Assembly (NCBI GenBank): GCA_025355345.1
Contig: JANXZU010000034.1
Coordinates: 6,143-70,142 of the forward strand
Source of the DNA: Syntrophaceae bacterium
GTDB taxonomy: Bacteria > Desulfobacterota > Syntrophia > Syntrophales > Smithellaceae
DNA length: 64,000 bases
Reading direction: 5' to 3'
The position numbers were made by a program, and so were the translations under genes. Position 1 is the stretch's first letter. Every line of letters starts with the position of its first letter. The notes below the pieces were generated by a model. The model ran no database searches. It had not been told where the DNA came from and saw only the letters and a list, made by a program, of their open reading frames with translations. Shown here piece after piece: positions 26,236 to 56,697 of this stretch.

Positions 26236-26240
26236 GACAA

Positions 26241-26567
26241 TAATGAGACCCAAGTTTCAGAAACAAAGTGCGCTGAAACTTGCAGGTCAAATTATCCCGC
26301 AAAGCGGCGGCAATAAGACTCAGATGTCAGAAGCGAAGTAACCTAAAGGTCATCTGCGACGCACTGAAATCTGTTAGTCGAATTAATGAAACTCAAATAT
26401 TATCCCTACAAGGGATGTCGCATATTTTCAAAGATGCCTACGGCTTTTTCAAGGTTGCTCCACAAATGCAGTACAGTAATATTTGCTAGTTGAATTATCC
26501 CGCCGTAGGCGGAGGATATCGCAGATATCCGTGGTATCCTACGTGCGAAGCATAGCGGGATAATTAC
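26241..26567 (+). repeat. intergenic composite hairpin-repeat array A (about 3 units)
   Basis: Short unit at 26241-26308, long-loop unit at 26312-26385, partial unit to 26420, and an M3-type unit with a nested hairpin at 26489-26567 (AATTATCCCGC...GCGGGATAATT). Confidence 0.8.
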
Positions 26568-26577
26568 TAATCCTTCC

Positions 26578-26606
26578 TTGACAGAGGGCATATTTATGTT
26601 TATTCT
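26578..26606 (+). promoter_or_regulatory. candidate sigma-70-type promoter for the diadenylate cyclase gene
   Basis: TTGACA, 17 nt, TATTCT, located 34 nt upstream of ATG 26640, with AAGGTG as the Shine-Dalgarno. Confidence 0.45.
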
Positions 26607-26639
26607 AAACAAAATAAAAATACAAAATAAGGTGAACAA

Positions 26640-27512
26640 ATGCAATCGATAAGTAATACCATGATCGAATATGCGATCAAAATTGCACATGATGTCAATG
26701 CCGATGCTTTACTTGTCTGCGTGGACGTAACTAAAGATATTATTTCCCTTCCAGAAGATATAAAGAAAGGTATCGGCTTGATTATCGTAACTACTGAGGA
26801 TCAAAAGCTACCGCCCGAGATTAATAAATATGCCAAAAGGCTCGATGTTCCCAATGTCAATCTGACACGCGTAGGAAAAATTAAAATTGCGATCGCCAAA
26901 GGAATCGTACTTGGTTATTTCAAAAGAGGAGACAAGATAATCTGTTTGAGCGGTGTGCCCAAGTTTGGTTACGCAGACAGCATTTTGTTTATCGATGTTG
27001 GCAAGGAATTTCAAATTTTGACCTCAGATTTTATTAATGATGTACTTGAAGCTGTCCAACCGGAAGTCTTTAACGCTATATTAAATTTATCCTGCGAACT
27101 GGCCGCTAAGGGACGTGAAAACAGAAAAATAGGAACGATGTTTGTGCTGGGGGATGATGAAAAAGTCATGCAACTTTCCCGGCAAATGATTATCAATCCA
27201 TTTCTGGGATATTCGGAAGAACAACGTAATATTTTAAATCCTGAACTTGAAGAAACAATAAAAGAATTTTCGGCAATTGATGGAGCCTTTATTATAAATG
27301 GTAAAGGGGCAATTATAACAGCCGGAAGGCATCTCAATGCAGCACTGGAGGGCCGCGATTTTCCCGCAGGCTTAGGCAGCAGACATATCGCTGCCGCGGG
27401 TATAACAAATGTGACTAAGGCAGTGGCCATTGTCATTTCCGAATCATCCGGAAATGTTTCGGTATTTAAAAATGGAAAATTGTTTGTCACCATTAAAAAA
27501 CCAGTAGAATAA
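26640..27512 (+). CDS. diadenylate cyclase (DAC domain) with an N-terminal pyruvate-kinase-C-terminal-like domain (DacZ/CdaZ-type architecture)
   Basis: The C-terminal half carries GTMFVLGDD, DGAFIING.G.I..AGRHL and GLGSRHIAAAGIT..T.AVAIVISESSG.VSVF, which is the DAC signature. The N-terminal ~130 aa (ADALLV..., G..KRGDKIICLSGVP) resemble PK_C. Confidence 0.8.
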   Translation: MQSISNTMIEYAIKIAHDVNADALLVCVDVTKDIISLPEDIKKGIGLIIVTTEDQKLPPEINKYAKRLDVPNVNLTRVGKIKIAIAKGIVLGYFKRGDKIICLSGVPKFGYADSILFIDVGKEFQILTSDFINDVLEAVQPEVFNAILNLSCELAAKGRENRKIGTMFVLGDDEKVMQLSRQMIINPFLGYSEEQRNILNPELEETIKEFSAIDGAFIINGKGAIITAGRHLNAALEGRDFPAGLGSRHIAAAGITNVTKAVAIVISESSGNVSVFKNGKLFVTIKKPVE

Positions 27513-27720
27513 TGACACTCGCTGAGAGCAAATAAAATGAAGCTCGAAGCGCAAGTGGTAATGAGACTCAAAATTCAGAAACAAAGTGAGATGAATTTTG
27601 TAAGTCGAATTATCCAATCCCAATTAATTGGATTGGAAATTATCCCCTGAGCGAAGCGAATGGTGATAATGGGATGAAGCTGAAAACGAATGAAATGAAT
27701 TAAGCAGGGGTAATGAGGAT
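27510..27720 (+). repeat. intergenic composite hairpin-repeat array B
   Basis: Starts at the dac stop codon (TAATGACAC). Full unit at 27559-27675 (M1 + CCAATCCCAATTAATTGGATTGG + AATTATCCCC..GGTGATAAT). The degenerate last unit ends in TAATGAGGA, which doubles as the clpB Shine-Dalgarno. Confidence 0.8.
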
Positions 27721-27726
27721 AAAAAT

Positions 27727-35193: not shown

Positions 35194-37631
35194 TGTTAAG
35201 GAATCAACGAAGTATCTGGACAGTTTTACTAAGCGGTTTAGTAATGCTATTACTTGCCGGAACCGCTTTCGCAGGTGAGGCGGATATCAAATTACCTGAT
35301 GTTCTAGCTGTTACATTTTTGGGTGGCAAGTTGACAGGCTGGATGATTTTAAATTGCGGTCTTGCCATATGCGCCATTGGTATGATTTTTGGTGTGCTTC
35401 AATATGTGCAAACCAAGAATCTGCCCGCACACAAAGCAATGCTTGATGTTTCTCAGACAATCTGGGAAACCTGCAAAACCTACCTTTTCCAGCAAGGTAA
35501 ATTTTTAATCGGTTTGTGGATACTGATCGCCATTTGCATCGTTTATTATTTTGGTGTTTTGCAAGGCAAGGTAACATCCGACGTTATTATCATACTTATA
35601 TGCTCCATCGTCGGTATCCTTGGTTCTTATGTTGTAGCCTGGTTTGGTATCCGCATTAACACGGTTGCCAATTCTCGAGCCGCCTTTGCATCACTGAGTG
35701 GCGATCCCTTGAACATAGTTAATATCTGTTTACGTTCCGGCATGAGTGTCGGTCTGCTTTTAGTCAGTATAGAACTTTTCTTTATGATCATCATTCTGGC
35801 CTATATTCCCAAAGAATTGGCCGGTCCCAGCTTTATCGGTTTTGCTATCGGTGAATCTCTTGGCGCATCCGCTCTGCGTATCTGCGGTGGTATCTTCACC
35901 AAGATTGCCGATATCGGCTCCGACCTGATGAAAATCGTTTTCCATCTTCCCGAAGACGATCCGAAAAACCCCGGTGTTATTGCTGACTGTACCGGTGACA
36001 ATGCTGGTGACAGCGTTGGCCCCACTGCTGACGGTTTTGAAACCTACGGTGTTACCGGTGTTGCCTTGATTGCCTTTTTGGCTTTGTCTTTAGCCAGCAA
36101 TCCTGCGATGGGTGGTAAATTGATTGTCTGGATTTTCGCTATGAGAATCCTCATGATTCTGACTTCTCTTGCCTCATACTTTGTTAATGATGTTATCAGC
36201 AAATCATTTTTTGCCGGCAAGAAGGATTTTAATTTTGAACATCCGTTAACCAATCTGGTTTGGATTACATCAATCGTATCCATTGGCGTTACATTCCTTG
36301 CAAGTTATTTTCTCTTGGGCGACCTGACCGACAAATACCAAGGCTTGTGGCTGCCTCTTTCCATCATCATCAGCTGCGGAACTATTGCCGGTGCTTTGAT
36401 TCCGGAACTGACAAAAGTTTTCACCAGCACTTCATCACGTCATTGCGAAGAAGTTGTTAATGCTTCCCGTCAGGGTGGACCTTCTTTGAACATTCTCGCC
36501 GGGCTCGTTGCCGGTAACTTCTCCGCTTTCTGGGAAGGCCTGACCATCATGCTCCTGATGCTGGTTGCCTACCTGGTATCTACAAACGCCGCGATTATTG
36601 CTCTTATGCCGCCCGCTTTTGTTTTTGCCGCTCCGGTGTTCGCTTTCGGTCTGGTGGCTTTCGGTTTCCTGGGCATGGGCCCGGTTACAATCGCTGTTGA
36701 CAGCTTCGGTCCGGTATCGGATAATGCTCAGTCTATTTATGAACTTTCCATGATTGAATCACGTCCCGATGCAAAAGAAGTTGTTAAGAAAGAATATGGC
36801 ATTGAACCTAATTTTGAAACAGCCAAACACTTTCTGGAATCAGCAGACGGTGCAGGTAATACCTTTAAAGCAACTGCCAAACCCGTGTTGATCGGAACTG
36901 CAGTTGTCGGTGCTACCACAATGGTTTTCGGTATCATCATCCTGCTCGAAGGACTATTCGGCAATGTTATCGGTAAACTTTCTCTGGTTCAGCCGGAAAT
37001 CATTCTTGGACTGCTTATGGGTGGTTGCGTGATTTACTGGTTCACCGGTGCATCTATTCAAGCAGTGAGCACAGGCGCCTATCAGGCAGTTGTGTTTATT
37101 AAGAAGAATATCAATCTTGATAAAAAAGAAGCTTCGATTGAAGACAGTAAAGAAGTCGTAAAGATTTGCACCCAGTACGCTCAAAAGGGAATGATCAACA
37201 TCTTCATCGTCATTTTCTTTATGACGCTGGCTCTGTCTTTCTTCAACCCTTACTTCTTTATCGGATACCTCATCGGTATCGCCTTCTTTGGTCTCTTCCA
37301 GGCGATCTTCATGGCCAATGCCGGCGGTTGCTGGGATAACGGCAAGAAGATTGTTGAAGTAGATCTGAAGATGAAAAACACTCCGCTGCATGAAGCAAGC
37401 GTAGTAGGCGACACAGTCGGCGACCCCTTCAAAGACACCTCTTCTGTTTCTTTGAACCCGGTCATCAAATTCACGACTCTGTTTGGTCTGCTCGCAGTAG
37501 AAATCGCAGTAACCATGACCAATACCAATTTGAAGTATGGTTTGGCTGCCTGCTTCTTTATAATTGCTTTGATTTTCGTTTATCGTTCGTTCTACAGCAT
37601 GCGGATTGTCAGCGAAAAACTTGGTGAATAA
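35190..37631 (+). CDS. hppA: membrane-bound proton/sodium-translocating pyrophosphatase
   Basis: 813 aa, about 16 TM helices, with GDNAGD, DSFGPVSDNA and GDTVGDPFKDT motifs. The start overlaps the pth stop (ATGATG). Confidence 0.9.
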   Translation: MMLRNQRSIWTVLLSGLVMLLLAGTAFAGEADIKLPDVLAVTFLGGKLTGWMILNCGLAICAIGMIFGVLQYVQTKNLPAHKAMLDVSQTIWETCKTYLFQQGKFLIGLWILIAICIVYYFGVLQGKVTSDVIIILICSIVGILGSYVVAWFGIRINTVANSRAAFASLSGDPLNIVNICLRSGMSVGLLLVSIELFFMIIILAYIPKELAGPSFIGFAIGESLGASALRICGGIFTKIADIGSDLMKIVFHLPEDDPKNPGVIADCTGDNAGDSVGPTADGFETYGVTGVALIAFLALSLASNPAMGGKLIVWIFAMRILMILTSLASYFVNDVISKSFFAGKKDFNFEHPLTNLVWITSIVSIGVTFLASYFLLGDLTDKYQGLWLPLSIIISCGTIAGALIPELTKVFTSTSSRHCEEVVNASRQGGPSLNILAGLVAGNFSAFWEGLTIMLLMLVAYLVSTNAAIIALMPPAFVFAAPVFAFGLVAFGFLGMGPVTIAVDSFGPVSDNAQSIYELSMIESRPDAKEVVKKEYGIEPNFETAKHFLESADGAGNTFKATAKPVLIGTAVVGATTMVFGIIILLEGLFGNVIGKLSLVQPEIILGLLMGGCVIYWFTGASIQAVSTGAYQAVVFIKKNINLDKKEASIEDSKEVVKICTQYAQKGMINIFIVIFFMTLALSFFNPYFFIGYLIGIAFFGLFQAIFMANAGGCWDNGKKIVEVDLKMKNTPLHEASVVGDTVGDPFKDTSSVSLNPVIKFTTLFGLLAVEIAVTMTNTNLKYGLAACFFIIALIFVYRSFYSMRIVSEKLGE

Positions 37632-37658
37632 AACGTAATTTAACACTTAACCTTAAAA

Positions 37659-37687
37659 GGCGCTCCCGAAACGGAGCGCCTTTTTTT
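37659..37687 (+). terminator. intrinsic terminator of hppA
   Basis: GGCGCTCC-CGAAAC-GGAGCGCC followed by TTTTTTT. The T-tract runs directly into the first TAATGAGAC repeat. Confidence 0.8.
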
Positions 37688-37897
37688 AATGAGACTCAAA
37701 TTACAGGAACGAAGTGAACTGGAATTTGTAAGTCGTAATGAGACAAGCTGAAAACAAACGTAATGCGGTTTGAAGCGTAAGTCGAATTATCCAATAGCCA
37801 AAGGCTATTGGGAATTATCCCCGAAGCGTAGCGTAGGTGGTTAATGAAACAACTTAATCAGAACAGAAGCAAACTGTAATCTGTTAGTTGATTATAC
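37687..37897 (+). repeat. intergenic composite hairpin-repeat array C (three M1 units)
   Basis: Units start at 37687, 37736 and 37842. The middle unit carries GTCGAATTATCC + CCAATAGCCAAAGGCTATTGG + AATTATCCCC..GGTGGTTAAT. The last unit overlaps the 3' end of the convergent gene 37884-38366. Confidence 0.8.
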
Positions 37898-38366
37898 TCT
37901 CCAATATCTTCGCAGCCGATAAAACAAAAAGCGGACATTGTTTGGTAAACACTCCGGCTTCCCTCGCCTTTTTCAATTCTTCCGGATTTTTCATATCATA
38001 AGGAATAAGTTCTTTGCACAATACGCTTTTGTTTTCAGCGGCAAATTTCTCTAGTAATTCATTCGTTTTATTATATGCTATTTCCTTAGCCGGAAAATCA
38101 GCGGGGTTTATGGTGCCAAACTTCATACCTATGATCAATGCAGCGCCGGAAACGGCTCCACAAATATGTCCGTTTCTTCCCACGCCTCCTCCCAAAGCCG
38201 ATGCCATTTTTACTGCATCCTCTTGGTTGATCCCAACTTCGTTTGCATATGCTTTAATAATCGATTGAGCACAATTATATCCCTTCTTCATACACTCGGA
38301 AGCTATCTCAGGTTTATTCATCTTCGTATCCTTTCTTGCGATTAGATTAATACGCTGTTCATTCAA
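37884..38366 (-). CDS. C_GCAxxG_C_C-family putative redox protein
   Basis: GYNCAQS, HICGAVSGA and later Cys residues in the family spacing. Confidence 0.7.
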   Translation of the reverse strand: MNEQRINLIARKDTKMNKPEIASECMKKGYNCAQSIIKAYANEVGINQEDAVKMASALGGGVGRNGHICGAVSGAALIIGMKFGTINPADFPAKEIAYNKTNELLEKFAAENKSVLCKELIPYDMKNPEELKKAREAGVFTKQCPLFVLSAAKILESIIN

Positions 38367-38738: not shown

Positions 38739-38807
38739 TAATGAGACTTAAGTTTCAGAAACGAAGTGAACTGAAACTTGTTAGTCGAATTATCCCGCTG
38801 AAAGCGG
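38739..38807 (+). repeat. solo composite hairpin-repeat unit D
   Basis: TAATGAGAC-TTAAGTTTCAG-AAACGAAGTGAA-CTGAAACTTGTTA-GTCGAATTATCC-CGCTGAAAGCGG. Confidence 0.8.
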
Positions 38808-38987: not shown

Positions 38988-41900
38988 TTATTGCTTTCGC
39001 GATGCCGGCATCAGAACCTCAACAGAATGTTTCTGATGATCATTAATCAGCGGAATAGCCATGTCTTGAGCAACGGCACCATCAATTGTTACGCTGCCCA
39101 CTTCAAACTCTTGATTTGTTTTCCGGACAGTAATTAGGTAAACACTCTGCCGAAACACATATTTAATTTTGAATTCTCCCCAATCTTCAGGGAGGCATGG
39201 ATTAAATGTTATTTTGTCCATGTTAATAGATATTCCTAGCAGCGACTCCAGAACAAGCCTGTACATCCAGGCAGCAGATCCGGTAAACCATGTCCAACCG
39301 CCACGGCCGACATGCGGATACACAGCATAGACATCGGAAGCAATAACATAAGGCTCAACTTTATAAATATCCACATCCTCGGGCGACCTCGCGTGATTTA
39401 TCGGGTTTATTATAGACAATAGATCCCACAGACGCTGATTGTCGTGTAAAGCGGCAAAAGCCATGGCCGCCCATACCGCCGCGTGAGTGTACTGACCGCC
39501 ATTTTCTCTCACACCGGGAACATAACCCTTAATATAACCCGGCTCCAGTTCAGACTTATCAAAAGGCGGGTCAAGCAACTGGATTAGTTTTTTGTCGCGG
39601 TGAACCAGATACTTATCTAAAGATTCCATCGCTTGCCGCACCCGGTCATAAGCTCCGGCACCGGAGAGAACAGACCAACTTTGCGCAATCGAATCAATCC
39701 GGCATTCCGTATTTGCTGCTGATCCCAATACTGAGCCGTCATCGAAATATGCACGGCGGTACCAGTTGCCATCCCAGCCTTCGCGCTCTATGCTTTGTTG
39801 TAGATTGGCAGCTTCTTTATTGCATAAATCGGCAAATGGGATGTCAATTTTCAGGCGGGCAATTTCAGAAAACTTCATGAGTACCTCATACAGGAAGAAA
39901 CCCATCCAGACACTTTCTCCTTTACCTTCCTCTCCTACCTTATTCATGCCGTCATTCCAGTCGCCACAGCCCATAAGCGGCAGGCCATGACTGCCGAATT
40001 TTAATCCCCTTTTAATAGCTCGCACACAGTGATCATATAAACTTGTTGCTTCATCAGATAAACCAGGCAGTTCGTAATAGGAATCCTCCTGTGCGTCCAG
40101 CTGACGACCCTCAATAAACATTACTGCTTCATTCAAAATGCCCCGATCACCGGTAGTGTTAATATAGCGGCTCACAGCTAAAGGCAGCCACAGATAATCA
40201 TCAGAACATTGCGTGCGCACACCCCTTCCGGAAGGCGGATGCCACCAATGCTGCACATCTCCTTCCTGAAATTGACGGCTTGCGCATAAAAGCAAATGCT
40301 GACGTACAAGATCCGGTTGGGCATAAACAAGCGACATTGTATCCTGCAACTGGTCACGGAAACCAAAGGCACCGCCGGACTGGTAATAACCGTTTCGAGC
40401 CCAAAGACGGCATGATATCGTCTGGTATAATAACCAGCCATTGGTTAATATATTGAGAGACTGGTCCGGCGTTTCCACTTGTATAGTGCCTAGTGTCTTG
40501 TGCCAGTATTTCTGAACTTCATTAAGAATGCTTTGCGCTATTGTTGATCCTCTGAAATTTTTAACCGTGTTACTGGCATCATCAGCACCTCTTCTACCGG
40601 TAACACCAAGTCTGAAGATTGTTTCATGATTCTGTCCATCATCTAATTCAAAGTTAACCTGTATGGCGGCGCAGGGATCAAGGGCTGCGCCGACTTTGCC
40701 GGAGAGTTGAGAACGCGTCATGGCTGCTGGACTTGCAAGGTCACCATTACGCCCGATAAACTCCGTTCTGTCTCCGGTGATAATTCGATTTTTATCATCT
40801 ACATCAAAATAAACTACCCGATCAGCAAATTCAGTATTATAAGAATTGCGTGCAAAAATCGCCCCGCTTGCCATATCTACTTCGGTTGTAACATGCATCA
40901 TCGTTTTTGAGCGCAAATCACCCAGCACCCACTCCACATATCCTGTTACAGATAGACTGCGGGAACGACCTGATTCATTGTGCAATTTTAATACTGTAAA
41001 TTTAATCGGTGCATCTATTGCCACATAAATCCACAACTCTGATCTAATTCCCTCTTCAATGTGCTCAAAAACACTGTAACCAAATCCGTGCCGGGTTATA
41101 TATGGTGTAGCCGCTCGGCAGGGAAGTGGCATGGGCGACCAGAAATGTCCTGTTTCTTCATCACGAATATAGAACGCCTCTGGGCTCAAATCGCTTACCG
41201 GATCGTTGTACCAAGGTGAAAGACGGAACTCATGGGCATTCTCACTCCAGGTTGAAGCAGAACCGCTCTCTGAAATTACTGATCCGAAATGAGGATTAGC
41301 CAATACATTAACCCAGGGCGCAGGTGTCACACTTCCGGGTTTTGTTATAATCACATATTCTCGTCCGTCGGTTGTAAATCCGCCAAGCCCGTTTGCAAAA
41401 ACCAGCTCTGGTAAAGTGATCTGTTTTGGCTTCTTGATTTGTGCATGTTGAGTCCGAGTAGGTTTGAAACGAGGAACAACCGATTCTGTAAGAGGACGAC
41501 GGCTGATTTGTTCTATCAGAGTGCCCCTGCTGTCTTTTAGTATTACACGGGCAACAGTTTGCAAAAGGATTCTGTCTTCGTTTGATATCAAGTCACCGGG
41601 CCTGACAAATATGCCGCCCGGTTTGTCAATCACATTCGCTTCAATACCTGCTGTAATCATGCCCTTTATCTGGTCATGGAGAAATTGTCTGTAGATCGCG
41701 TTATCTTCATTCCAGATTACAAGATCAACTGCCAGTCCTTTTAAGCGCCAGTATGCATGTGCCTGTTCAAGTTGACGTACAAGCTCTATATTTGCATGGT
41801 CACTGATCTGAAGCAGCACAATAGGCAAATCTCCGGAAATGGCATAACCCCACAAACCCGATTGCCCGCGACGGTTTTTGAAGATAATCTTCGGATCGGC

Positions 41901-44900
41901 GCGCAGAGCTGAATTGCCGTAAATTATTGAACCTGCCATACGTCCGTAAAGCTGGGCGTCGGCTTCTGTGGCATTTATTTGCCGCAACACAACATGACTG
42001 TGTGTCTGTGCCAGATCAAAAACACGATCGGCAAGATGGCGATCTGAATATTTTTCGGCAAGATTAAGCGCATTATCCCGTGTTTCACCGATACCGGAAA
42101 CAATATTAATCGTCACCGATTGTCCCGGATCCAATTTAACGCGGCAACGTATGGATACAATGGGATCCAGGACTGAACCTTCAGTATCCGAAAGTGTTTT
42201 GGACTTATCGACAGACCAATTCATCGCCTGCGGGTTTACTATAGTATTTCCACGACCAATAAATTTCAGACGATCTGTTTCATAAGATAATTCTTTTTTC
42301 TCCACCTCGTGCAATGCCATCAGATGAAACATCCAGTGTGAAGGTTCATCTTTTGAACGTGGTCTTCTTGTACAAAGAATCGTCTGGCGTGCACGCAGGA
42401 TTTCCGTCTGAACAAAAAGATTACCAAAGGCGGGATGCAGCGCATCAGCTGCCGGCACCGCAAGAACAATTTCCGCGTAACTGGTTACATCAATTTCTCT
42501 GATTCTTCTGGAACGGTTTGTGACACGTACACGCCGTAACTCAATATCATCCTCGGGAGATACTGCTATTTCCGTGTGCGTGTTGATTTCATGATCTCGA
42601 CGGCGAAACTCAACCTTTGCATCAGAAAGAATAGCTTCATATCTTTCCGGTTGTTTCAGCGTTGGTTGATAAGCTGTAGACCAATACTCTCCGCTTGCCA
42701 GGTCACGAATGTAACAGAATGTACCCCAATTATCGCGGGTGAAATCTTCGCGCCAGCGTGTAAGGGCCATGTCCTTCCAGCGGCTGTATCCTCCTCCCGC
42801 ACTGGTAACCATCAGATGGTATCTTCCATTAGATAATAACTGCACCTTTGGTATGGGCGAACTGGGAGTATTAAATATACGTGCCGGAATCCTTTGCTGT
42901 TGGAAAGTCTTCCGAATAATAATATCCTCTTCGATTTGCTGATAGAAAGCAACAGCTCTGGGAACGCGCTCCTGGAGGAGTAGCATAGCTGATTGAAACA
43001 TCGGATCAGACTCGAAACGCCTCTGCATCGGACAATCAAGAAGAAGGTAGGCAAGCGCCAGTAAGCTCATGCCTTCATGATGAGCCATAAACGATCTTAC
43101 TACAACACTCGATTGACCACTTGGTACTCTTGAAGGCGTATAATCAATCGCCTCATAGAAACCATAGGGCCCTTCCATACCCTCCCGACTCAACCTCTGC
43201 AAATTTAGACAGGCATCCTCAGGTGCTACCATCAGAGCCAGCGCTGAAGCGTACGGAGCCACAACCAGATCATCGGAAAGTCCTCTTTTCAGGCCGAGTC
43301 CTGGAACACCAAAAGCATGATACTGATAGTTCAGATGGATATCGATTGTGCTGTATCCTGATTCTGAAATGCCCCATGGCACTCCCCTTTCTTTTCCATA
43401 ATCAATCTGTCTTCTTACGGCTGCCTTATAAGTCTGGTCCAGCAGTGTATTTTCATAATTAGGCATTACCAGAAGCGGCATAAGATACTCAAACATTGAA
43501 CCATCCCAGGAAAGAAGAACCGGATATTTCCCCGGATTAGTCAGAAGTCGTCCCAGAGCAAACCAGTTTTCCTGTGGTAGTTGCCCCTGGGCAATTCCGA
43601 TGAAAGTGCAAAATCTGGCCTCCGATGCCAATAGGTCATAGTAACTTGCGTCACGACGGCGCTCACCAACGCTATAGCCGATGGTTAACAATTGACGTCC
43701 TTTATCAAACAGGAAGCTGTAATCCATATCAGCATAGTCATTTGCCTGCGATGCCAGACGATTGATCGCTTCTATTCTTTCTTCCGCACGCTTACTGCTT
43801 TCCTTGACCATCTGGCGAAAATCAGCAAACCACGCTGTCTCCTCGGCAGTTGAATTGCTGCCAATTATGTTTTCAATTCCTTTTAGTAAGGACATTTCTG
43901 ATCTTGTCAATTCCCTTAACGTGGGAATTGAAATTGTTTCAAAGTACTCACTGATTCTTGCCGTAGGTGATTTAAGCGTAATCCAGGGGCAAAAAAAGGT
44001 TGCTTCATCTAAGGCATCTCCACATTGATGCACCAGGGCTTTGACCCACTTCATTATAGAACTTTCTGTTTTTGCATCAAAGGAGGAAGCAAGGTCAATT
44101 GACGACTTCGCAAGATGATCGAGACAATGAAACACCGGTTTTAGCTTCATTTTGCCGGGATCAGTAAGTGATCCGAGATATCTTTGAAAATCGGCAAGTT
44201 GTTTTTGTGCCGCAACTCCCGGATTATCCATAAGGACAGTAACAGTATCGCTTATACCTTTGAATAATTGAGATCCCAAAATCTTCTGATCGGGTAGATC
44301 AATAAAACCCCATCGCAAAGTCAATAAGTGCCCGCCAAGATTACCGCTGTCAACTGTGGATATGTAATGAGGTGGGAGGGTTGCCAGGCTTTGAGTGTCA
44401 TACCAATTATAAAAGTGACCACGATAGCGATCCATTTTCGCCATCGTCTGGAAGGTATTAGTTGTACGTTCGATTAATTCTCCTGCCGTTATATACCCAA
44501 AATCATACGCGGATAAATTTGCCAGCAAGGACATCCCCATGTTTGTAGGCGATGTGCGATGTGTAATTACGTTAGCCGGATGTTCCTGAAAGTTATCAGG
44601 CGGCAGCCAATTATCCTCCGGACCAACAAAAGTTTCAAAGAATGTCCATGTTTTTCGTGCAATTTTTCTAAGAAAGATAATTTGTCCATCTTTAAGTTCT
44701 ATACCGCCAACAACAATTTTCCGGCTTACCCACCAGGTAATTACAGGAGACAGAAACCAGAGAATCAGAATAATAATAGCTACGCTAAGCGCTGCCGGTC
44801 GCGCTTTCAGCAAATAAATAAATAGCCCGGTAGAAAGCAAAGGACCTATCCACATTGCCCGACATGAGGCAACAAAGTGATTGCCACTGAGATTTGTAGG

Positions 44901-47732
44901 ATTGGAGGAAGGATTCCACTCCAGCAGTCTCCTGTGTGAAACGAGCAACCTCCAGAGTGTACGGACAATCGCATCCAGACTGAAAAAAGCTTCGTAAGGA
45001 AGGCAAACAAGTATAAACAAAGTCTGATAAATGTGCCTTCTGCCTTGACGGAAGGCAGCAACAAAATGTTGACTAAGCGCCACATCTCCCGGCTTGTTTA
45101 AGAGTTCCATAAATATTTCAGCAGCTGAAGGAATCAGAAATATTCCAAGTACCATTATTGTCCAGAGCCAAACCGGAGACATGATGGCCCATCCCATAAT
45201 TAACATCAAGGTCAGCGCCGCCGGAACCAGACTGCGCCTGAGATTGTCGAATATCTTCCACTGAGAAAGCCATGATATTGTGTTTTTTTGATATTCCCCA
45301 CCAGAGACTGGAACTTTAGACCTTAGCCAACCGGCGATTTGCCAATCACCGCGAATCCAGCGATGCCTTCGGCTCACATCAGCACTGTATTGCGAAGGGT
45401 GCTCCTCGTATAATTGAACATCGGAAAGCAAACCACAACGCGCATGGCAACCTTCTATAAGATCGTGGCTAAGTATCATATTTTCCGGAAATCGTTCACT
45501 CAGTGACTTTTCAAACGCATCGACATCATAAATGCCTTTACCAATGTAGGAACCTTCACCGAATACATCCTGGTAGATATTAGAAACAACGCGCGTATAT
45601 GGATCAATACCGGTTTCACCGCCCCATAATTGCGCGTACCTTGAGTTACCGTCGCGCGATAAGCTTTCGGCGAGGCGAGGTTGAAGAATTCCGTAACCTT
45701 CAACAATACGATGAGTTGCTTCATCATAAAGCGGTCGATTCAGCGGATGAGCCATTGTTCCCACAAATTGCTGAGCGGAATCACGGGGAAGTTGAGTATC
45801 AGTATCCAGCGTAATAACGTACTTCACATTAGATAATATTTCAGTAATGCCGACGATAAGAGAAAAGCGATCATTTGCTCCTCCTCGCAGGAAGGCATTT
45901 AAGTCTGCTATTTTCCCACGCTTGCGTTCATAACCCATCCATATTTGTTCCTTTGGATTAAAACGGCGTGGACGGTGGAAAAGAAAGAAAAGACCTCCTT
46001 TCACACCTCTGTATTTATCATTTAGTTCTTCAATCCTCTTTTCTGCCAATACCAACAACTCATCATCAGCTGCAGTTGTTTCCTCATGAGCATCACGAAA
46101 ATCAGTAAGCAAAGCAAAGTGCAGGTTATTGTCCCTATTTGCTAAAAATCTTATTTCTAATGATTCGACCAGGTCTTCAACGTTTGAAGTACTCGTTAGC
46201 ATAGTAGGGATTATAACCAGAGTGCTTGATTCCGGTGGAATTTCGCGGGAGAAGTCCATACGCGGCAGCGGATGCGGCCTGGCCAAACGCGATGACAGCC
46301 AGTTTGCCAAGGCTACAGCCAGACTACTTGCGCCAAGAATAAAAATAATAGTTACAGGCGCCAGCATCCAACCATGAAAACTATGGGCTTGAACATAAGC
46401 CAGTAAACCACCGGCGACAATCAGTGTGATTGCCATTATTGTTCCAAGATACATAAATAAAGGAAATCTGGCTAAATATCGACGGATAAAATTAAAGACA
46501 GGCTGGCGCATCTGAGCCCTTTTTTCAAGTTCACGCAATCCATTGTCGATCAGGTAATAACCAACATGCGCAACCCGATCATTGTTGCCATGCTTTGATA
46601 AGCATTCTCCGGACAAATCGACTGCCAGGCGAGCCACTTCACTTTCGGATATGGGGCTGTTCTTGGCTATCCTTTCAACGATATGACGATATCGATCTCG
46701 TGTTGTAAAATCCATCTTAATGTATGTATCACTGGGGTCTTCAAGGAGAATCTGTTCGACAATGCTCATTGTCTCAACAAACTCACGCCAGTTCATAGCC
46801 GCCAGAAACCGAAGACTGCCGATACTGTTACTAACAGATACCTGATCAGCGGCCTGCTGCTGATTCTCTGATTGGACCATCTGTTCAATCGTCAGATTAG
46901 ATTCGGCAAGCCGTTGCTCAACCCATGTAAGCGGCAACGCAAAAGCCGGACTCTGCCCACGTAAACGACGCGTAAATTCCGCGACAAACGATCTTGTCAT
47001 CGGTTGATCGGACCTTGCTAAATCAGCGATTACTAAAACGATGTTTTTGGGGTCTCTTTTGACAACATCCGCCATCTGGTCTGCCCAATAATCCGCGCGC
47101 GCCCTATCGGCCATGGCTGCCATGCTTAACTTTCCAATACGCCTTAGATTTTCGATCAGTGCCAGGCGAAGCATGATCGGGATTGCCCATAACTCACCCA
47201 ATTTTAAATATGTTACTGTTTGGTAGGACGTGATAAAACTGATCAGGCTTTCCATATCCACCCGTCCATCCCCATGGGAAATTGTCTCCAGCGCAATCTC
47301 ATATACACGGGGGAATCCCGCCAATGGGCCATTTTGAAGACGCGGCAATCCACGACTATAATCTTTGGACAAATGTCTTTTAGCCAAGCGAATATTTTCT
47401 TCAATCAAATAGAAATTATCGAGAAGCCATTCTTCGGCAGGTGCTATAGGATTGTTTTCTTTGACAACGGAGGTCAGTTGATTACATGTTTCAATCAACA
47501 AATTTTGATTTTCATTAAGCCGCGACAGAAGCTTTTCAGAAGTCTTTTTACTCGTCAACTTATGCACGCCCGCCAGTGTTTTACTGTGTTGCTTCATCTG
47601 ATCGGTGCTCAGCAATTCCGATCGCAGGGGCAATTCATCGTAGGAGTGCTTCCTGCCGAAAGCACCACTGAGGTTGCGTTTTTTCACGCTCGGCAATGGC
47701 TCTTCTAAATTTGTCTTGTCGATAAACTTCAC
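38988..47732 (-). CDS. ndvB: cyclic beta-1,2-glucan synthase (Cgs/NdvB/ChvB-type: TM + GT84 domain + GH94 phosphorylase-like domain)
   Basis: 2914 aa with a GTG start after GAGGAG. Shows ITLDTDTQLP (DxD glycosyltransferase), several TM blocks, and a C-terminal GH94-like region with FGFRDQLQD. Size and order match Cgs. Confidence 0.85.
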   Translation of the reverse strand: MKFIDKTNLEEPLPSVKKRNLSGAFGRKHSYDELPLRSELLSTDQMKQHSKTLAGVHKLTSKKTSEKLLSRLNENQNLLIETCNQLTSVVKENNPIAPAEEWLLDNFYLIEENIRLAKRHLSKDYSRGLPRLQNGPLAGFPRVYEIALETISHGDGRVDMESLISFITSYQTVTYLKLGELWAIPIMLRLALIENLRRIGKLSMAAMADRARADYWADQMADVVKRDPKNIVLVIADLARSDQPMTRSFVAEFTRRLRGQSPAFALPLTWVEQRLAESNLTIEQMVQSENQQQAADQVSVSNSIGSLRFLAAMNWREFVETMSIVEQILLEDPSDTYIKMDFTTRDRYRHIVERIAKNSPISESEVARLAVDLSGECLSKHGNNDRVAHVGYYLIDNGLRELEKRAQMRQPVFNFIRRYLARFPLFMYLGTIMAITLIVAGGLLAYVQAHSFHGWMLAPVTIIFILGASSLAVALANWLSSRLARPHPLPRMDFSREIPPESSTLVIIPTMLTSTSNVEDLVESLEIRFLANRDNNLHFALLTDFRDAHEETTAADDELLVLAEKRIEELNDKYRGVKGGLFFLFHRPRRFNPKEQIWMGYERKRGKIADLNAFLRGGANDRFSLIVGITEILSNVKYVITLDTDTQLPRDSAQQFVGTMAHPLNRPLYDEATHRIVEGYGILQPRLAESLSRDGNSRYAQLWGGETGIDPYTRVVSNIYQDVFGEGSYIGKGIYDVDAFEKSLSERFPENMILSHDLIEGCHARCGLLSDVQLYEEHPSQYSADVSRRHRWIRGDWQIAGWLRSKVPVSGGEYQKNTISWLSQWKIFDNLRRSLVPAALTLMLIMGWAIMSPVWLWTIMVLGIFLIPSAAEIFMELLNKPGDVALSQHFVAAFRQGRRHIYQTLFILVCLPYEAFFSLDAIVRTLWRLLVSHRRLLEWNPSSNPTNLSGNHFVASCRAMWIGPLLSTGLFIYLLKARPAALSVAIIILILWFLSPVITWWVSRKIVVGGIELKDGQIIFLRKIARKTWTFFETFVGPEDNWLPPDNFQEHPANVITHRTSPTNMGMSLLANLSAYDFGYITAGELIERTTNTFQTMAKMDRYRGHFYNWYDTQSLATLPPHYISTVDSGNLGGHLLTLRWGFIDLPDQKILGSQLFKGISDTVTVLMDNPGVAAQKQLADFQRYLGSLTDPGKMKLKPVFHCLDHLAKSSIDLASSFDAKTESSIMKWVKALVHQCGDALDEATFFCPWITLKSPTARISEYFETISIPTLRELTRSEMSLLKGIENIIGSNSTAEETAWFADFRQMVKESSKRAEERIEAINRLASQANDYADMDYSFLFDKGRQLLTIGYSVGERRRDASYYDLLASEARFCTFIGIAQGQLPQENWFALGRLLTNPGKYPVLLSWDGSMFEYLMPLLVMPNYENTLLDQTYKAAVRRQIDYGKERGVPWGISESGYSTIDIHLNYQYHAFGVPGLGLKRGLSDDLVVAPYASALALMVAPEDACLNLQRLSREGMEGPYGFYEAIDYTPSRVPSGQSSVVVRSFMAHHEGMSLLALAYLLLDCPMQRRFESDPMFQSAMLLLQERVPRAVAFYQQIEEDIIIRKTFQQQRIPARIFNTPSSPIPKVQLLSNGRYHLMVTSAGGGYSRWKDMALTRWREDFTRDNWGTFCYIRDLASGEYWSTAYQPTLKQPERYEAILSDAKVEFRRRDHEINTHTEIAVSPEDDIELRRVRVTNRSRRIREIDVTSYAEIVLAVPAADALHPAFGNLFVQTEILRARQTILCTRRPRSKDEPSHWMFHLMALHEVEKKELSYETDRLKFIGRGNTIVNPQAMNWSVDKSKTLSDTEGSVLDPIVSIRCRVKLDPGQSVTINIVSGIGETRDNALNLAEKYSDRHLADRVFDLAQTHSHVVLRQINATEADAQLYGRMAGSIIYGNSALRADPKIIFKNRRGQSGLWGYAISGDLPIVLLQISDHANIELVRQLEQAHAYWRLKGLAVDLVIWNEDNAIYRQFLHDQIKGMITAGIEANVIDKPGGIFVRPGDLISNEDRILLQTVARVILKDSRGTLIEQISRRPLTESVVPRFKPTRTQHAQIKKPKQITLPELVFANGLGGFTTDGREYVIITKPGSVTPAPWVNVLANPHFGSVISESGSASTWSENAHEFRLSPWYNDPVSDLSPEAFYIRDEETGHFWSPMPLPCRAATPYITRHGFGYSVFEHIEEGIRSELWIYVAIDAPIKFTVLKLHNESGRSRSLSVTGYVEWVLGDLRSKTMMHVTTEVDMASGAIFARNSYNTEFADRVVYFDVDDKNRIITGDRTEFIGRNGDLASPAAMTRSQLSGKVGAALDPCAAIQVNFELDDGQNHETIFRLGVTGRRGADDASNTVKNFRGSTIAQSILNEVQKYWHKTLGTIQVETPDQSLNILTNGWLLYQTISCRLWARNGYYQSGGAFGFRDQLQDTMSLVYAQPDLVRQHLLLCASRQFQEGDVQHWWHPPSGRGVRTQCSDDYLWLPLAVSRYINTTGDRGILNEAVMFIEGRQLDAQEDSYYELPGLSDEATSLYDHCVRAIKRGLKFGSHGLPLMGCGDWNDGMNKVGEEGKGESVWMGFFLYEVLMKFSEIARLKIDIPFADLCNKEAANLQQSIEREGWDGNWYRRAYFDDGSVLGSAANTECRIDSIAQSWSVLSGAGAYDRVRQAMESLDKYLVHRDKKLIQLLDPPFDKSELEPGYIKGYVPGVRENGGQYTHAAVWAAMAFAALHDNQRLWDLLSIINPINHARSPEDVDIYKVEPYVIASDVYAVYPHVGRGGWTWFTGSAAWMYRLVLESLLGISINMDKITFNPCLPEDWGEFKIKYVFRQSVYLITVRKTNQEFEVGSVTIDGAVAQDMAIPLINDHQKHSVEVLMPASRKQ

Positions 47733-50656: not shown

Positions 50657-50734
50657 ATAAAACAAAACTCCTCTTTTAAAAAACTGCGTCAATCTAGGGT
50701 ATTTTTAACTGGCTGTCAAGAAGAACAAAATTAG

Positions 50735-51160
50735 TGAGCCTTTATTTTACCCTAAAGGGCACTGAGCCGAAAAGTAGTGTCCGGAAAATCTTAGAGCGAA
50801 TTATCCCGCCACCTTAGAGGTGGCAGGGACGAGCTTCGCTTCGTTCATTTTACCACGGCACTTTGCGCATACAAATCCTTAATGTGCTCATTATCCCCAT
50901 TCGCTAAGCACAGGGGATACTATCCAATAGCCGTTGGCTCTTGGATAGTTCGTCCAGCAAATTTCAGTGCGCCTATAGTGACCTTTAGGTTATACGCTTC
51001 TGAAACTTGGGACTCATTACGACTTACGCTTCACTATAGTTCAGCGAGCTTTCATTATCCCGCTCCGCCTATAGTGGCCTTTAGGCAATTTGCTTCGGGG
51101 ATAGTTCGACTTACGCTTCAAATTTCGCTGCGCTCGTTTTCAGCTTGTCTCATTAATAAT
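50735..51160. repeat. intergenic composite hairpin-repeat array E (largest; forward units followed by reverse-complemented units)
   Basis: Forward GCGAATTATCCCGCCACCTTAGAGGTGGC at 50796-50826. Reverse units at 50885-51019 and 51093-51155. The terminal TAATGAGAC (rc, 51147-51155) contains the rubrerythrin stop codon. Confidence 0.8.
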
Positions 51161-56414: not shown

Positions 56415-56497
56415 AATCTTTTTACTGATATGACAATTAATTATTAAGCGCTTCGTTCTTTTACGCGGCGCTTTTAATTTTTTGTGAAACTCCAATT

Positions 56498-56697
56498 TAA
56501 TGAAACTCAGATGTTGCCAACGCAGTGCAGCAATGTCTGCAAGTTGTAATGAGACTAAAACTTCAGAAGCAAATAACCTAAATACCCTAAAGAGCACCAT
56601 TGGGTCACTATAGACGCATTGAAGTTTTGTAGTCGAATTTTCCAATTGCCAAAGGCTATTGGAAATTATCCCGCGTGCGAAGCGGGACAATATAATT
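56498..56697 (+). repeat. intergenic composite hairpin-repeat array F
   Basis: Unit at 56498-56546 (TAATGAAAC...). Long-loop unit from 56547 with GTCGAATTTTCC + CCAATTGCCAAAGGCTATTGG + AATTATCCCGC-GTGCGAA-GCGGGA. Confidence 0.8.

Follow-up and report, generated by a model that had tools for sequence, protein, structure and literature searches.

An apparently undescribed family of hairpin-forming intergenic DNA repeats in Smithella-like bacteria and their phages

Introduction

Among the described systems closest to the repeats reported here, REP/BIME and REPIN-RAYT elements are short, non-coding, extragenic imperfect palindromes, present in high copy number and in intergenic mosaics that vary between related genomes; RAYTs act on folded single-stranded hairpins. 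The BOX elements of Streptococcus pneumoniae (boxA-boxB(n)-boxC) are modular, with variable internal modules, intergenic and structured; they show presence/absence polymorphism, and no transposase of their own has been identified. The ends of IS200/IS605 elements and of PATEs are recognized as hairpins together with specific foot-adjacent bases, fold in a strand-specific manner and integrate beside a short fixed sequence. In integron attC sites, structure is conserved over sequence, short boxes flank a variable stem, and recognition is of the folded single strand. MITEs of the Correia/NEMIS type are short insertions without coding capacity that lie at gene boundaries and may provide or maintain expression signals.

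Here we analyse a window of 64 kb, i.e. the whole 64,000-nucleotide stretch taken from a Syntrophaceae contig (JANXZU010000034.1), in which six intergenic stretches are genuine copies of one hairpin-forming DNA repeat family. The principal module, M1, is like REPs found in high copy number, extragenic and variable between related genomes; a folded single strand is its likely substrate, and a RAYT gene occurs in the same clade. M1 differs from REPs in its length (54 nt versus 20-40 nt), in stems that differ widely between copies of one genome, and in having conserved non-paired flanks rather than the terminal GTAG or CGTC by which REPs are defined (PMC3733652). The survey behind that definition does not cover Smithellaceae-type taxa (PMC3733652), and we saw GTAG only in some M1 copies from contigs binned to Omnitrophota. 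Furthermore, M1 units are co-oriented head-to-tail, whereas BIMEs alternate and REPINs are inverted doublets, and the RAYT of the clade is flanked by another hairpin family.

The M1 mosaics resemble BOX in being modular, intergenic, structured and presence/absence polymorphic, with ordered modules in variable internal number and apparent mobility without coding sequence. This resemblance is organizational only, because the sequences are unrelated; the host phylum is another one, and here each module is a hairpin, TAAT junctions are shared and nested loop insertions are frequent. With IS200/IS605 elements and PATEs, the hairpin, the strand asymmetry of wobble pairs (70 versus 24, see below) and a fixed TAAT(GAG) flank would fit, as would integration without a classical inverted-repeat or target-duplication signature; in contrast, no TnpA/TnpB lies near any copy, and the ends are not distinguishable as LE and RE. 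M1 may likewise be compared to attC in its conservation of structure above sequence, its short boxes around a variable stem and a folded single strand, but its hairpins are not separated by cassettes or ORFs, no integrase lies in the vicinity, and copies are dispersed genome-wide rather than gathered in one array. As small non-coding insertions at gene boundaries the repeats recall MITEs, but we saw no IS-derived terminal inverted repeats (the units run from GAGAC... to ...GGGG/GGGATAAT, which do not form an inverted repeat) and found no parent IS, and the flank is a fixed TAAT(GAG) and not a variable duplication.

Results

Six intergenic gaps carry copies of one repeat family

A first-pass annotation of the window had proposed a modular, intergenic repeat family at six loci, and this is borne out by counts against shuffled sequence and by covariance-model matches. 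The 9-mer TAATGAGAC has seven exact matches (26241, 27559, 37687, 37736, 38739 and 56547 on the plus strand; 51147-51155 on the minus strand), compared with 0.44 ± 0.62 in shuffles, none of 100 of which reached seven; with one mismatch allowed it is weakly enriched (26 versus 14). GTCGAATTATCC is found with at most one mismatch at 26286, 26489, 27604, 37781, 38784 and 56632 (plus) and at 51099 (minus), and AATTATCCC nine times where 0.9 would be expected, including one occurrence (63600) within a coding gene. The covariance model R1, built from 140 M1 copies, external ones and those of the window together, and run with filters off, gave 10 M1 matches with E < 2e-5 and an eleventh, weak one; all lie inside the six listed gaps, and the scan of the 64-kb window returned no M1 match elsewhere. 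An independent repeat search yielded the same families (D1-D7, D14, I1-I4). Altogether the window holds about 12 M1 copies, i.e. about one per 5 kb, in the following arrangement (M2 and M3 being the hairpin modules that follow M1).

26241..26297, plus strand: M1 unit with stem CAAGTTTCAG/CTGAAACTTG in the divergent sigma70/DAC spacer (R1 73.8 bits, E 1e-17)
26296..26307, plus strand: short GC hairpin CCCGC-AAAG-CGG, completing a unit of about 70 nt (sequence)
26311..26384, plus strand: M1 CAATAAGAC...GTCGAATTA (R1 31.2 bits, E 8e-6, for 26316-26381)
26339-26359, plus strand: 21-nt micro-insertion TAACCTAAAGGTCATCTGCGA in the apical loop of M1 26311..26384
26384..26500, plus strand: M1 TAATGAAACTCAAATATTA ... 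CAAATGCAGTACAGTAATATTTGCTAGTTGAATTATCC split by an insertion of about 58 nt (26403-26460; arm-matching scan)
26493..26567, plus strand: closing module of M3 type, AATTATCC...GGGATAAT, with nested short hairpins; right end of the mosaic (sequence)
27510..27558, plus strand: M1 TAATGACAC...GTGG, with C-G for G-C at the 7-48 pair; its TAA is the DAC stop codon (R1 30.1 bits, E 1.6e-5)
27559..27615, plus strand: M1 with stem CAAAATTCA/TGAATTTTG (R1 75 bits, E 5e-18)
27608..27671, plus strand: M2 palindrome CCAATCCCAATTAATTGGATTGG, then M3 hairpin AATTATCCCC-TGAGCGAAGCGAAT-GGTGATAAT (repeat D6, folding)
27672..27726, plus strand: remains of a degenerate unit, followed by the native copy of the target, GTAATGAGGATAAAAAT, with the ClpB ribosome-binding site (compared with empty orthologous spacers, which read TAA, TGAGGATATAACT, ATG)
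37655-37686: intrinsic terminator of hppA, upstream of the repeat
37687..37735, plus strand: M1 directly after the hppA terminator, head-to-tail with the next M1 (R1 43.4 bits, E 3e-9)
37736..37792, plus strand: M1 of subtype GCTGAAAAC/GTTTGAAGC, whose stem includes a tandem G·A (R1 59.1 bits, E 1.4e-13); 84% complementary to 51099-51155 (I2)
37785..37841, plus strand: M2 palindrome CCAATAGCC-AAA-GGCTATTGG, then M3 hairpin (repeats D7, D14, folding)
37842..37897, plus strand: degenerate M1 TAATGAAAC...GTTGATTATAC (R1 17 bits, E 0.068, weak); its 3' arm overlaps the last codons and stop (37884-37886) of the convergent C_GCAxxG gene
37884-38366, minus strand: ORF of the C_GCAxxG gene
38739..38807, plus strand: single basic unit, M1 plus short hairpin CCCGCTGAAAGCGG (R1 81.5 bits, E 8.5e-20, the best in the window)
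50732..50827, plus strand: probable M1 variant TAGTGAGCC...GAGCGAATTATCC with C-G at the 8-47 pair and a ACCCTAAAGGGCAC micro-unit in the 5' arm, then hairpin CCCGCCACC-TTAGA-GGTGGCAGGG (sequence; no R1 score); an intact counterpart lies on the opposite strand in L187-L190
50949-51019, minus strand: M1 with a 20-nt micro-insertion, 50973-50992 (R1 38.1 bits, E 9.5e-8, for 50949-51016)
50870..51019, minus strand: block of M1 50949-51019, then M2 (CCAAGAGCC..GGCTATTGG) and M3-type hairpins (I1, I3, I4)
51099-51155, minus strand: M1 starting just past the rubrerythrin stop codon (R1 55.8 bits, E 1e-12)
51020..51155, minus strand: block of M1 51099-51155, then M3 carrying a micro-insertion plus the remnant of a collapsed M1
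56480..56546, plus strand: truncated 5' piece GTGAAACTCCAATT, recurrent across many loci, then M1 TAATGAAAC...GTTG (R1 43.7 bits, E 2.6e-9, for 56498-56554)
56547..56643, plus strand: M1 with stem AAAACTTCA/TGAAGTTTT and a 52-nt loop holding a doubly nested 40-nt micro-insertion, 56574-56613 (arm-matching scan)
56641..56697, plus strand: M2 palindrome CCAATTGCC-AAA-GGCTATTGG, then M3 hairpin AATTATCCCGCG-TGCGAAG-CGGGACAAT (D6, D7, D14)

R1 misses the M1 at 56547..56643 because of the micro-insertion in its loop, and by the arm-matching scan the loop of M1 26384..26500 measures 72 nt, an architecture that recurs in L017. The stems, palindromes and M3 units quoted in the first-pass annotation are all present in the window as written. 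Its one-mismatch copy at 27711, however, proved to be TAATGAGGA, with two mismatches, and is the native target copy on the stop/RBS side rather than part of an element. It also made no mention of the nested insertions that interrupt M1 at 26316-26381, 26384-26402 plus 26461-26500, 50949-51019 (minus strand) and 56547-56643, and missed that both orientations are present in the 50735-51160 gap.

The repeat is present at a minimum of 118 loci, spread over about 34 species-level genomes of Smithellaceae, which disposes of the possibility, raised at the outset, that it is a local duplication. Smithellaceae MAGs account for nearly all related M1 copies; M1 is also present on a few contigs binned to other phyla, and eight loci are on seven tailed-phage contigs with 1-4 copies each. 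By crude longest-ORF calls, 135 of 147 M1 copies lie outside ORFs. Since 140 of the 147 are distinct in sequence, nothing points to a burst in the very recent past. Literature searches combining Smithella with REP, MITE, RAYT or REPIN found no relevant paper, and searches with repeat 12-mers returned only unrelated papers (three on Staphylococcus aureus, one on canine stem cells), none on bacterial repeats. This hairpin-mosaic family, hosted by Smithella-like bacteria and their phages, thus apparently has not been described before.

The M1 fold is conserved by compensatory changes

M1 folds from TAAT/ATTA pairs, a tandem G·A, GAC/GTC pairs and a variable 10-bp stem to an apical C-NNA-G mini-hairpin. 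Its flanks, TAAT-GA-GAC ... GTC-GA-ATTA, contain fixed single-stranded or non-canonical positions, and in Smithellaceae the module begins with TAATGAGAC and ends with G-NN-(A/G)GTCGAATTA. With a short GC hairpin that begins at AATTATCC, M1 forms the basic unit of about 70 nt; such a unit, M1 plus CCCGCAAAGC(A/G)GG, is the entire insert in L123, L130 and L194. Modules after AATTATCC passed a simple hairpin test in 80% of cases, compared with 50% at random positions, and the test is too lenient for this difference to weigh heavily.

The compensatory variation noticed between three window copies holds across 140 distinct ones: 94.8% of pair cells are paired, versus 24-39% when the partners are slid, and double changes occur at 17 of the 20 M1 pairs, with none of 500 shuffles matching the observed values. 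RNAalifold predicted 19 pairs, each of which belongs to the 20 that make up the proposed structure. Covariation extends to the outer pairs (GAGAC/GTC to GAAAC/GTT, GACAC/GTG or GAGTC/GAC; TAAT/ATTA to TAGT/ACTA). M1 copies on contigs from bins of other phyla retain the fixed flanks TAATGAGAC and GTCGAATTATCC but have unrelated stems; within one genome, too, the stems vary widely.

Wobble pairs on the TAATGAGAC strand are mostly G·T (70, versus 24 A·C), and the excess lies on the same strand in copies antisense to genes (14 versus 8). The apex is a C-(G/A)NA-G triloop, often GCGAAGC, which is described as an extraordinarily stable DNA mini-hairpin (PMC13037366). The wobble excess and the apex together are suggestive of strand-specific folding of the TAATGAGAC strand. 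As RNA, M1 folds at -12 to -15 kcal/mol (z about -3), which is no less favourable than folding as DNA; an additional RNA-level role in some copies may therefore exist.

Orthologous sites are empty or filled, and units are nested

The spacer between DAC and ClpB was compared in 80 orthologues. About 50 are empty, with 11-16 nt that read TAA, then TGAGGATA…ATG, while about 20 are filled with 82-351-nt mosaics of differing M1 subtypes; in the clearer cases TAATGAG stands on the left and a TAATGAGGA-like copy on the right (e.g. TAATGAGGA, CAATGAGGA, TAGTGAAGA). The empty spacer is the ancestral state, because the most distant orthologues (60-62% identity) have it. The sigma70/DAC spacer likewise measures 130-150 nt without an insert and 214-467 nt with one, in which case GAYAAT stands at both sides, and at its right junction orthologues show GGGATAAT followed by a conserved TTGACAG promoter-side flank.

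Integration is at TAAT(GAG)-like sites, which typically lie where a stop codon meets a ribosome-binding site (TAA/TGAGGA), where the T-tract of a terminator ends, at the edge of a unit already in place or inside the loop of a hairpin already present. A TAAT(GAG) copy is left on each side of the integrated unit, and in this way neither the stop codon upstream nor the ribosome-binding site downstream is lost. These flanks can be read as a target-site duplication, a fixed target or homology-guided integration. Successive integrations at such sites give head-to-tail mosaics of the order M1(n)-M2-M3, with 1-3 M1 copies each and a composition that varies at one site; mosaics could also grow via unequal recombination between modules. 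Within any one mosaic the units point the same way, except in the 50735-51160 gap, where two blocks face in opposite directions.

Units also sit within one another's loops. The M1 loop is 12 nt in 142 of 176 copies, and the remaining loops are enlarged in quantized steps, by 18, 20 or 21 nt, by 36 or 40/41 nt (double insertions), by 60 nt, or by a whole unit. Orthologous M1 copies were found with and without the 21-nt micro-unit.

At the repeat-bearing loci examined, no transposase adjoins the M1 copies, and all-against-all clustering of 861 ORFs from these loci gave housekeeping families only and no multi-copy transposase. An ORF between inverted M1 copies in L051 was considered as a transposase and rejected, as by eye it appears to encode an ArsR-type regulator.

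A transcribed RNA element is an unlikely reading of M1

The first-pass annotation took the covariation to point to selection on a fold, of RNA or of cruciform DNA, and from the sense orientation of units at the 3' ends of genes it inferred a possible role as 3'-UTR stabilizer, terminator or sRNA source. Under such a reading the repeats would be cis-acting elements of 3' UTRs or intercistronic RNA, i.e. stabilizers, processing sites, terminators or sRNA sources, whose covariation records an RNA fold. The stable predicted RNA folds and the G·U-type wobble excess on the modelled strand are in line with this, as are the copies between co-transcribed genes, which must therefore be transcribed, and all informative window copies are sense to the upstream gene. 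The sense orientation, however, is confined to the window: among the 147 copies, co-directional contexts comprise 40 sense and 35 antisense (by the same crude gene calls), which leaves the 3'-UTR idea without support. Phage copies occur in both orientations between co-transcribed structural genes, being antisense to these in L200, L203 and L204, and the wobble excess stays on the same DNA strand in antisense copies. A terminator role is likewise unsupported, as M1 has no T-tract (it is followed by GAATTATCC), a terminator scan called no M1 hairpin, and the true terminator at 37655-37686 lies upstream of the repeat. Moreover, the orthologous genes function with an empty 12-nt spacer. As to the covariation, it does not of itself point to a host RNA function, because the same pattern is expected if only hairpin-keeping copies are copied or moved.

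The family is absent from Rfam 15, against which only two tRNAs exceeded the gathering threshold; at E ≤ 10, nearly all matches in 37600-37960 were to the terminator 37655-37686, and none reached half of the family gathering score. A hammerhead-like reading (UGA-stem-GAA compared with domain II) was rejected by eye, the G5 equivalent being A, A15.1 being U and a three-way junction being absent. Taken together, we consider an RNA element an unlikely explanation of the family. An insertion of mobile DNA is the stronger reading, because orthologous sites are empty or filled and insertions are nested.

The RAYT of the clade is flanked by different hairpins

Using RAYT and IS200 sequences as tblastn queries, we were led to a 167-aa ORF in L132 that scores 87.6 bits on NCBIfam REP_Tyr_transpos (NF047646; cut-off 80) and is thus a RAYT. 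A strict HUH-motif regular expression had found nothing in six-frame translations; it missed this RAYT because it required P before HxH. The same queries led to a second Y1 gene, in L028, which was rejected as M1 mobilizer: it has its own AAAGGGGAC inverted repeats and is not flanked by M1.

The L132 RAYT lies within the mosaic that occupies the orthologue of window 26173-26639, with an M1 at a distance of about 130 nt, and belongs to a clade of 81-99% identical relatives, one of them named Smithella. If M1 were a REP moved, as in classical REPIN systems, by this single-copy RAYT, these findings would fit, as would the use of folded single-stranded hairpins by RAYTs given the anatomy of M1; the first-pass annotation had anticipated that a RAYT would reclassify the family as REP-like. 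However, in five genomic contexts (L132, L207, L213, L216 and L222) the RAYT is flanked by GGTTCA(A/G)TC..TGAACC hairpins and never by M1; the window contains none of these hairpins, and nor do 203 of 206 loci. No M1 was found within ±4 kb of the RAYT in L207-L213, nor in about 53 kb around it in two other genomes, and both homologues checked for the window's own assembly belong to other assemblies. Smithellaceae M1 copies also lack a terminal GTAG or CGTC tag, and their units are co-oriented instead of forming inverted pairs. We therefore regard mobilization of M1 by this RAYT as improbable.

Discussion

The empty and filled orthologous sites and the nested insertions lead us to view the family as probably one of non-autonomous DNA repeats that are polymorphic for insertion and form hairpin mosaics, in the manner of REP/BIME, REPIN or BOX elements. 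The hairpin would then be the element's own recognition structure, folded as single-stranded DNA of the TAATGAGAC strand, on which a putative strand- and hairpin-specific enzyme may act in trans, as the phage copies and the lack of an adjoining transposase suggest. The likeliest candidate would be of HUH/Y1 type (IS200/IS605- or RAYT-like), with 'peel and paste' movement, and the covariation would reflect selection for continued mobility, not host RNA function.

It is conceivable, if rather doubtful at present, that M1 and the 18-21-nt TAACCTAAAGGTCA micro-units are substrates of an undescribed ssDNA insertion system that targets hairpin loops and whose enzyme would differ both from the local RAYT and from the known IS transposases. 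To our knowledge, a mobile unit of 20 nt would be smaller than any known mobile DNA. Flanks fixed across several phyla, recursive loop integration and spread into host phages are pointers in this direction.

Alternatively, the repeats might be host-domesticated structural DNA sites that spread mainly by recombination or gene conversion and have a role of the kind proposed for Escherichia coli BIMEs, either binding nucleoid proteins, gyrase or polymerase or modulating supercoiling. The retention of TAATGAGAC and GTCGAATTATCC beside unrelated stems in other phyla suggests a sequence-specific binding partner, and module shuffling between mosaics is compatible with recombination. Yet most orthologous sites are empty, and therefore no position is required; precise in-loop insertions and quantized units of 18-21 nt are unlike what recombination predicts, and copies are present in phage genomes. 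Such domestication seems to us a poor prospect. Chance similarity or simple duplication confined to this region, in favour of which nothing speaks beyond the weak one-mismatch enrichment of the 9-mer, can be dismissed as exceedingly improbable in view of the seven exact copies of that 9-mer against 0.44 expected, R1 E-values down to 1e-19 and the presence of the repeat at 118 or more loci, spread over dozens of genomes.

In methanogenic systems, Smithella and its relatives play a key part as syntrophic degraders of alkanes and propionate; they are known almost only from MAGs. A repeat family as dense as this one, which has an M1 about every 5 kb here, accounts for assembly breaks, supplies strain-typing markers and marks hot spots, e.g. 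the sigma70/DAC/ClpB region. The family also offers a natural experiment on the requirements of a hairpin-recognizing mobilization system, namely flanks that are fixed, a tandem G·A step, a 10-bp stem of any sequence and a C-NNA-G cap. The TAAT(GAG) copies on both sides of an insertion, which spare stop codons and ribosome-binding sites, make selfish DNA tolerable inside operons at low cost. Finally, the quantized loop insertions of 18-21 nt and the presence of the repeat in phages and other phyla provide a handle for an enzyme search by phylogenetic profiling.

Sequence and fold of the repeat units

All seven exact occurrences of the 9-mer TAATGAGAC that the first-pass annotation had listed in the window were recovered; shuffled sequences contained 0.44 ± 0.62, and 0 of 100 reached seven. 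GTCGAATTATCC (≤ 1 mismatch) was found seven times in the window, in each case with a TAATGAGAC-type word upstream at a distance of 36 nt or, where an insert intervenes, 36 nt plus its length, and AATTATCCC nine times versus 0.9 expected. When one mismatch was tolerated, the 9-mer by itself was only weakly enriched (26 versus 14). An unbiased repeat search of the window returned the same families (direct repeats D1-D7 and D14, inverted repeats I1-I4). The word TAATGAGGA at 27711, previously counted as a one-mismatch copy, has two mismatches and turns out to be the native target sequence and not an element. The copies themselves lie where they had been placed, but nested inserts that interrupt several of them had not been separated out. 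Blocks of both orientations are present in the gap at 50735-51160.

Two further features of the window were seen in passing. Tandem repeats of 9 nt (CATGGAAAA / CACGGGAAA type) form a run at 10320-10373, presumably in a coding region. A very large ORF of 2,914 aa (38988-47732, reverse strand) lies immediately downstream of the unit at 38739; between the two, a short ORF may begin near 38830.

We collected 147 copies of M1, the main hairpin module (140 distinct), from the window and at least 118 loci of a species-level genome collection. M1 forms one long hairpin, in which TAAT pairs with ATTA, followed by a symmetric tandem G·A step, GAC paired with GTC, a Y:R pair (GACC..GGTC or GACT..AGTC) and a 10 bp main stem whose 3′ side bears a 2-nt bulge. 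The apex, AA-[R C NNA G Y]-G-N-R, is a 2-bp mini-hairpin with a triloop, the third base of which is A in 135/140 copies. In the alignment of the 140 sequences, 94.8% of pair cells held standard pairs, compared with 24-39% when the 3′ partners were slid, and 17 of the 20 pairs showed changes on both sides; none of 500 shuffles reached the observed pairing and covariation values. RNAalifold, run without a supplied structure, predicted 19 pairs, all of them within the proposed 20. Covariation extends to the outermost pairs (GAGAC/GTC changes to GAAAC/GTT, GACAC/GTG, GAGTC/GAC or GAGGC/GCC, and TAAT/ATTA to TAGT/ACTA), and the inner stem comes in five or more subtypes of unrelated sequence. The covariation first proposed from a few copies is therefore correct and better supported than stated.

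A covariance model of M1 matched 10 window copies with E < 2e-5 and one more with E 0.068. All matches fell inside the six gaps at 26241-26567, 27510-27720, 37687-37897, 38739-38807, 50735-51160 and 56498-56697, and the remainder of the window gave no significant match. The accompanying modules M2 and M3 are further hairpins, both starting at AATTATCC; M3 ends in GG(G)ATAAT, the TAAT of which is common to the next unit. Another module, ...CCCCAAAGCTTGCTTTGGGGTTCATACCCGTGATT, often stands last in mosaics (e.g. L063 1750-1850, L111 and L098, three external loci), its k-mers occurring 22-29 times; it is absent from the window.

Insertion at orthologous sites

With the DAC gene (26640-27512) as query, 80 orthologous metagenome loci were obtained at 60-90% protein identity. 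The spacer between DAC and ClpB, which in the window consists of 214 nt of repeats, is 11-16 nt long at ∼50 loci (TAA, TGAGGATATAACT, ATG), including the two most distant ones, and holds 82-351 nt of mosaic at ∼20 others. M1 subtypes and the number of modules vary from one mosaic to another, so this site has been targeted repeatedly; M1 is confined to some lineages of this set. Filled sites always start on the left at the stop codon within TAATGAG, and in the clearer cases end on the right in a TAATGAGGA-like copy (e.g. TAATGAGGA, CAATGAGGA or TAGTGAAGA) plus the start codon. Thus TAAT(GAG) stands on both sides, and stop codon and ribosome-binding site both survive. Empty versions of the sigma70/DAC spacer (26173-26639 in the window) likewise measure 130-150 nt and filled ones 214-467 nt, with GAYAAT at either side.

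The 5′ flank of M1 is generally T-rich, and units often directly follow a stop codon or the T-tract of a terminator, as in the window:

37655-37686, intrinsic terminator 3′ of hppA, GGCGCTCC-CGAAAC-GGAGCGCC plus a T7 run

The last T of this terminator tail is the first base of the hppA-side mosaic, and M1 lies directly 3′ of a terminator T-tract at several other loci. M1 has no T-tract itself, and a terminator scan called 0 M1 hairpins, which argues against the terminator role once considered for it. Separately, the C_GCAxxG gene (reverse strand) has its stop codon and the four codons before it within a degenerate M1 3′ arm (37884-37897), so the repeat may have replaced the original gene end.

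Nesting and the micro-unit

Matching 5′ with 3′ arms in 176 M1 copies revealed quantised loop lengths of 12, 30, 32, 33, 48 and 52-53 nt. Of these copies, 142 have a loop of 12 nt and 18 a loop longer by 18, 20 or 21 nt; one copy with an extra 36 nt and four with an extra 40-41 nt hold a micro-unit within a micro-unit, and other long loops carry an extra 60 nt or a whole M1+M2+M3 unit. The micro-unit of 18-21 nt reads TAACCT(A/G)AAGGTCA plus 5-8 nt and sits after the conserved triloop A or just before the 3′ arm. Common to many loci (e.g. L119 4403, L125 1640, L076 3837), it is present in the window at:

26339-26359, micro-unit
∼50748-50766, micro-unit variant
50973-50992, reverse strand, micro-unit
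56574-56613, double micro-unit

The orthologous DAC-ClpB M1 lacks the micro-unit in L130 and L194 and contains it in L119, L125 and L129. The micro-unit also occupies loops of M3 hairpins, of a hairpin family with no relation to these (GGATTCCCG...CGGGAATGAC) and of GTAG-type hairpins adjoining a RAYT (REP-associated tyrosine transposase) gene. A hairpin family CTGGATTCCCG...CGGGAATGAC (L079 1753, L092 6019, L095 6614 on the reverse strand, L200 6169), whose loop hosts the micro-unit, presumably resembles the dRS3-type ATTCCC-N8-GGGAAT repeats of Neisseria.

Distribution across genomes and phages

About 107 of the matches listed from the genome collection came from ∼34 MAG species labelled Smithella, Smithellaceae, Syntrophaceae or 'delta proteobacterium'; the others listed were binned as Omnitrophota (4 MAGs), Bacteroidota (3 MAGs), Victivallales, two archaea and one unclassified bacterium (L037). 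The DAC protein of the window is also present in assembly GCA_043724205.1, and judged by these relatives the window belongs to a Smithellaceae genome. Mis-binning explains some of the loci outside the Smithella group: L022, L048 and L101 resemble Smithella DNA. All loci binned outside the Smithella group carry true M1-type hairpins by the model (34-78 bits). On the Omnitrophota, Bacteroidales and Flavobacteriaceae contigs, flanks are identical while stems are unrelated and loop lengths differ; TAATGAGAC and GTCGAATTATCC are kept in L016, L018, L049 and L094 (Omnitrophota), L054 and L068 (Bacteroidota) and L077 (Victivallales). Given such flanks around unrelated stems, and a G+C content of 32% in L054 versus 42% in the window, the element type probably crosses phyla. 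Some of the cross-phylum hairpins adjoin tRNA genes.

IMG/VR yielded eight M1-matching loci (L199-L206) on seven contigs, which by our reading of their terminase-, portal- and capsid-like proteins appear to be tailed phages. Each contig has 1-4 M1 copies, in either orientation, in short gaps between structural genes; L205 and L206 show four copies in ∼4 kb (L205 5998-9946).

RNA or DNA fold

The units had been described as sense-oriented at gene 3′ ends. This holds for 3/3 cases in the window, but in co-directional gene contexts across the family crude ORF calls gave 40 sense versus 35 antisense copies; the window pattern is therefore a sampling accident. Stem wobbles on the TAATGAGAC strand were G·T in 70 cases versus A·C in 24, and the excess stayed on that strand in copies antisense to genes (14 versus 8), as predicted for a strand-specific DNA fold and not for an mRNA fold. 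Both results speak against the repeats being an RNA device, which we regard as improbable. The apex is often GCGAAGC or a relative; PMC13037366 calls this motif a DNA mini-hairpin of extraordinary stability. Because M1 hairpins are significantly stable under RNA and DNA folding parameters alike, the case for a strand-specific DNA fold is suggestive, not decisive.

Search for a mobilizing enzyme

The six gaps are flanked by housekeeping genes (sigma-70, DAC, ClpB, H+-PPase, C_GCAxxG, DUF6868, Germane, rubrerythrin, LysM and a ThiI-like protein), and clustering of 861 ORFs of repeat-bearing loci revealed no multi-copy transposase. A tblastn search with a RAYT sequence found a 167-aa ORF in L132 (2775-3278, reverse strand) that scored 87.6 bits (cut-off 80) with the NCBIfam REP_Tyr_transpos model. 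It lies beside M1, within the mosaic that fills the orthologue of window 26173-26639, a position that favours a classical REP/RAYT system. Relatives 81-99% identical form a Smithella clade with at least five genomic contexts (L132, L207, L213, L216, L222). In these five, however, RAYT is always bracketed by its own GGTTCA(A/G)TC...TGAACC hairpin doublets, not by M1; neither the window nor 203/206 loci contain such hairpins, and no M1 was found within ±4 kb of RAYT in two other genomes. The co-occurring RAYT that might have recast the family as REP-like thus exists in the clade, which does run a RAYT/REP system, but one that could not be linked to M1, and we doubt that the repeats are a classical system of this kind.

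A second Y1 (IS200-like) transposase gene, apparently frameshifted, was noted in Smithella sp. SCADC (L028 1040-1880), with AAAGGGGAC(AGAT) tandem repeats inverted on either side of it and M1 ∼300 nt away.

Discussion

The repeat family is real, structured and modular; it is insertion-polymorphic with a fixed TAAT(GAG) junction, recursively nested, and has spread to phages. Rfam contains no model matching the repeats, and we found no record of the family in the literature. REP/BIME/REPIN and pneumococcal BOX elements are closest in behaviour, but M1 has neither the tag nor the cognate RAYT flanks nor the inverted arrangement that define REP/REPIN, and it also lacks the inverted repeats and variable duplication of IS-derived MITEs.

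That the repeats are structural sites domesticated by the host is unlikely. We favour a mobile element whose hairpin would be its own recognition structure on single-stranded DNA; the most plausible candidate for the mover would be an HUH-type enzyme acting in trans, and covariation may then be the outcome of selection for mobility. Tentatively, and with low confidence, the family could represent a hairpin-loop-targeting system of single-strand insertion, with flanks conserved across phyla and mobile units down to 20 nt.
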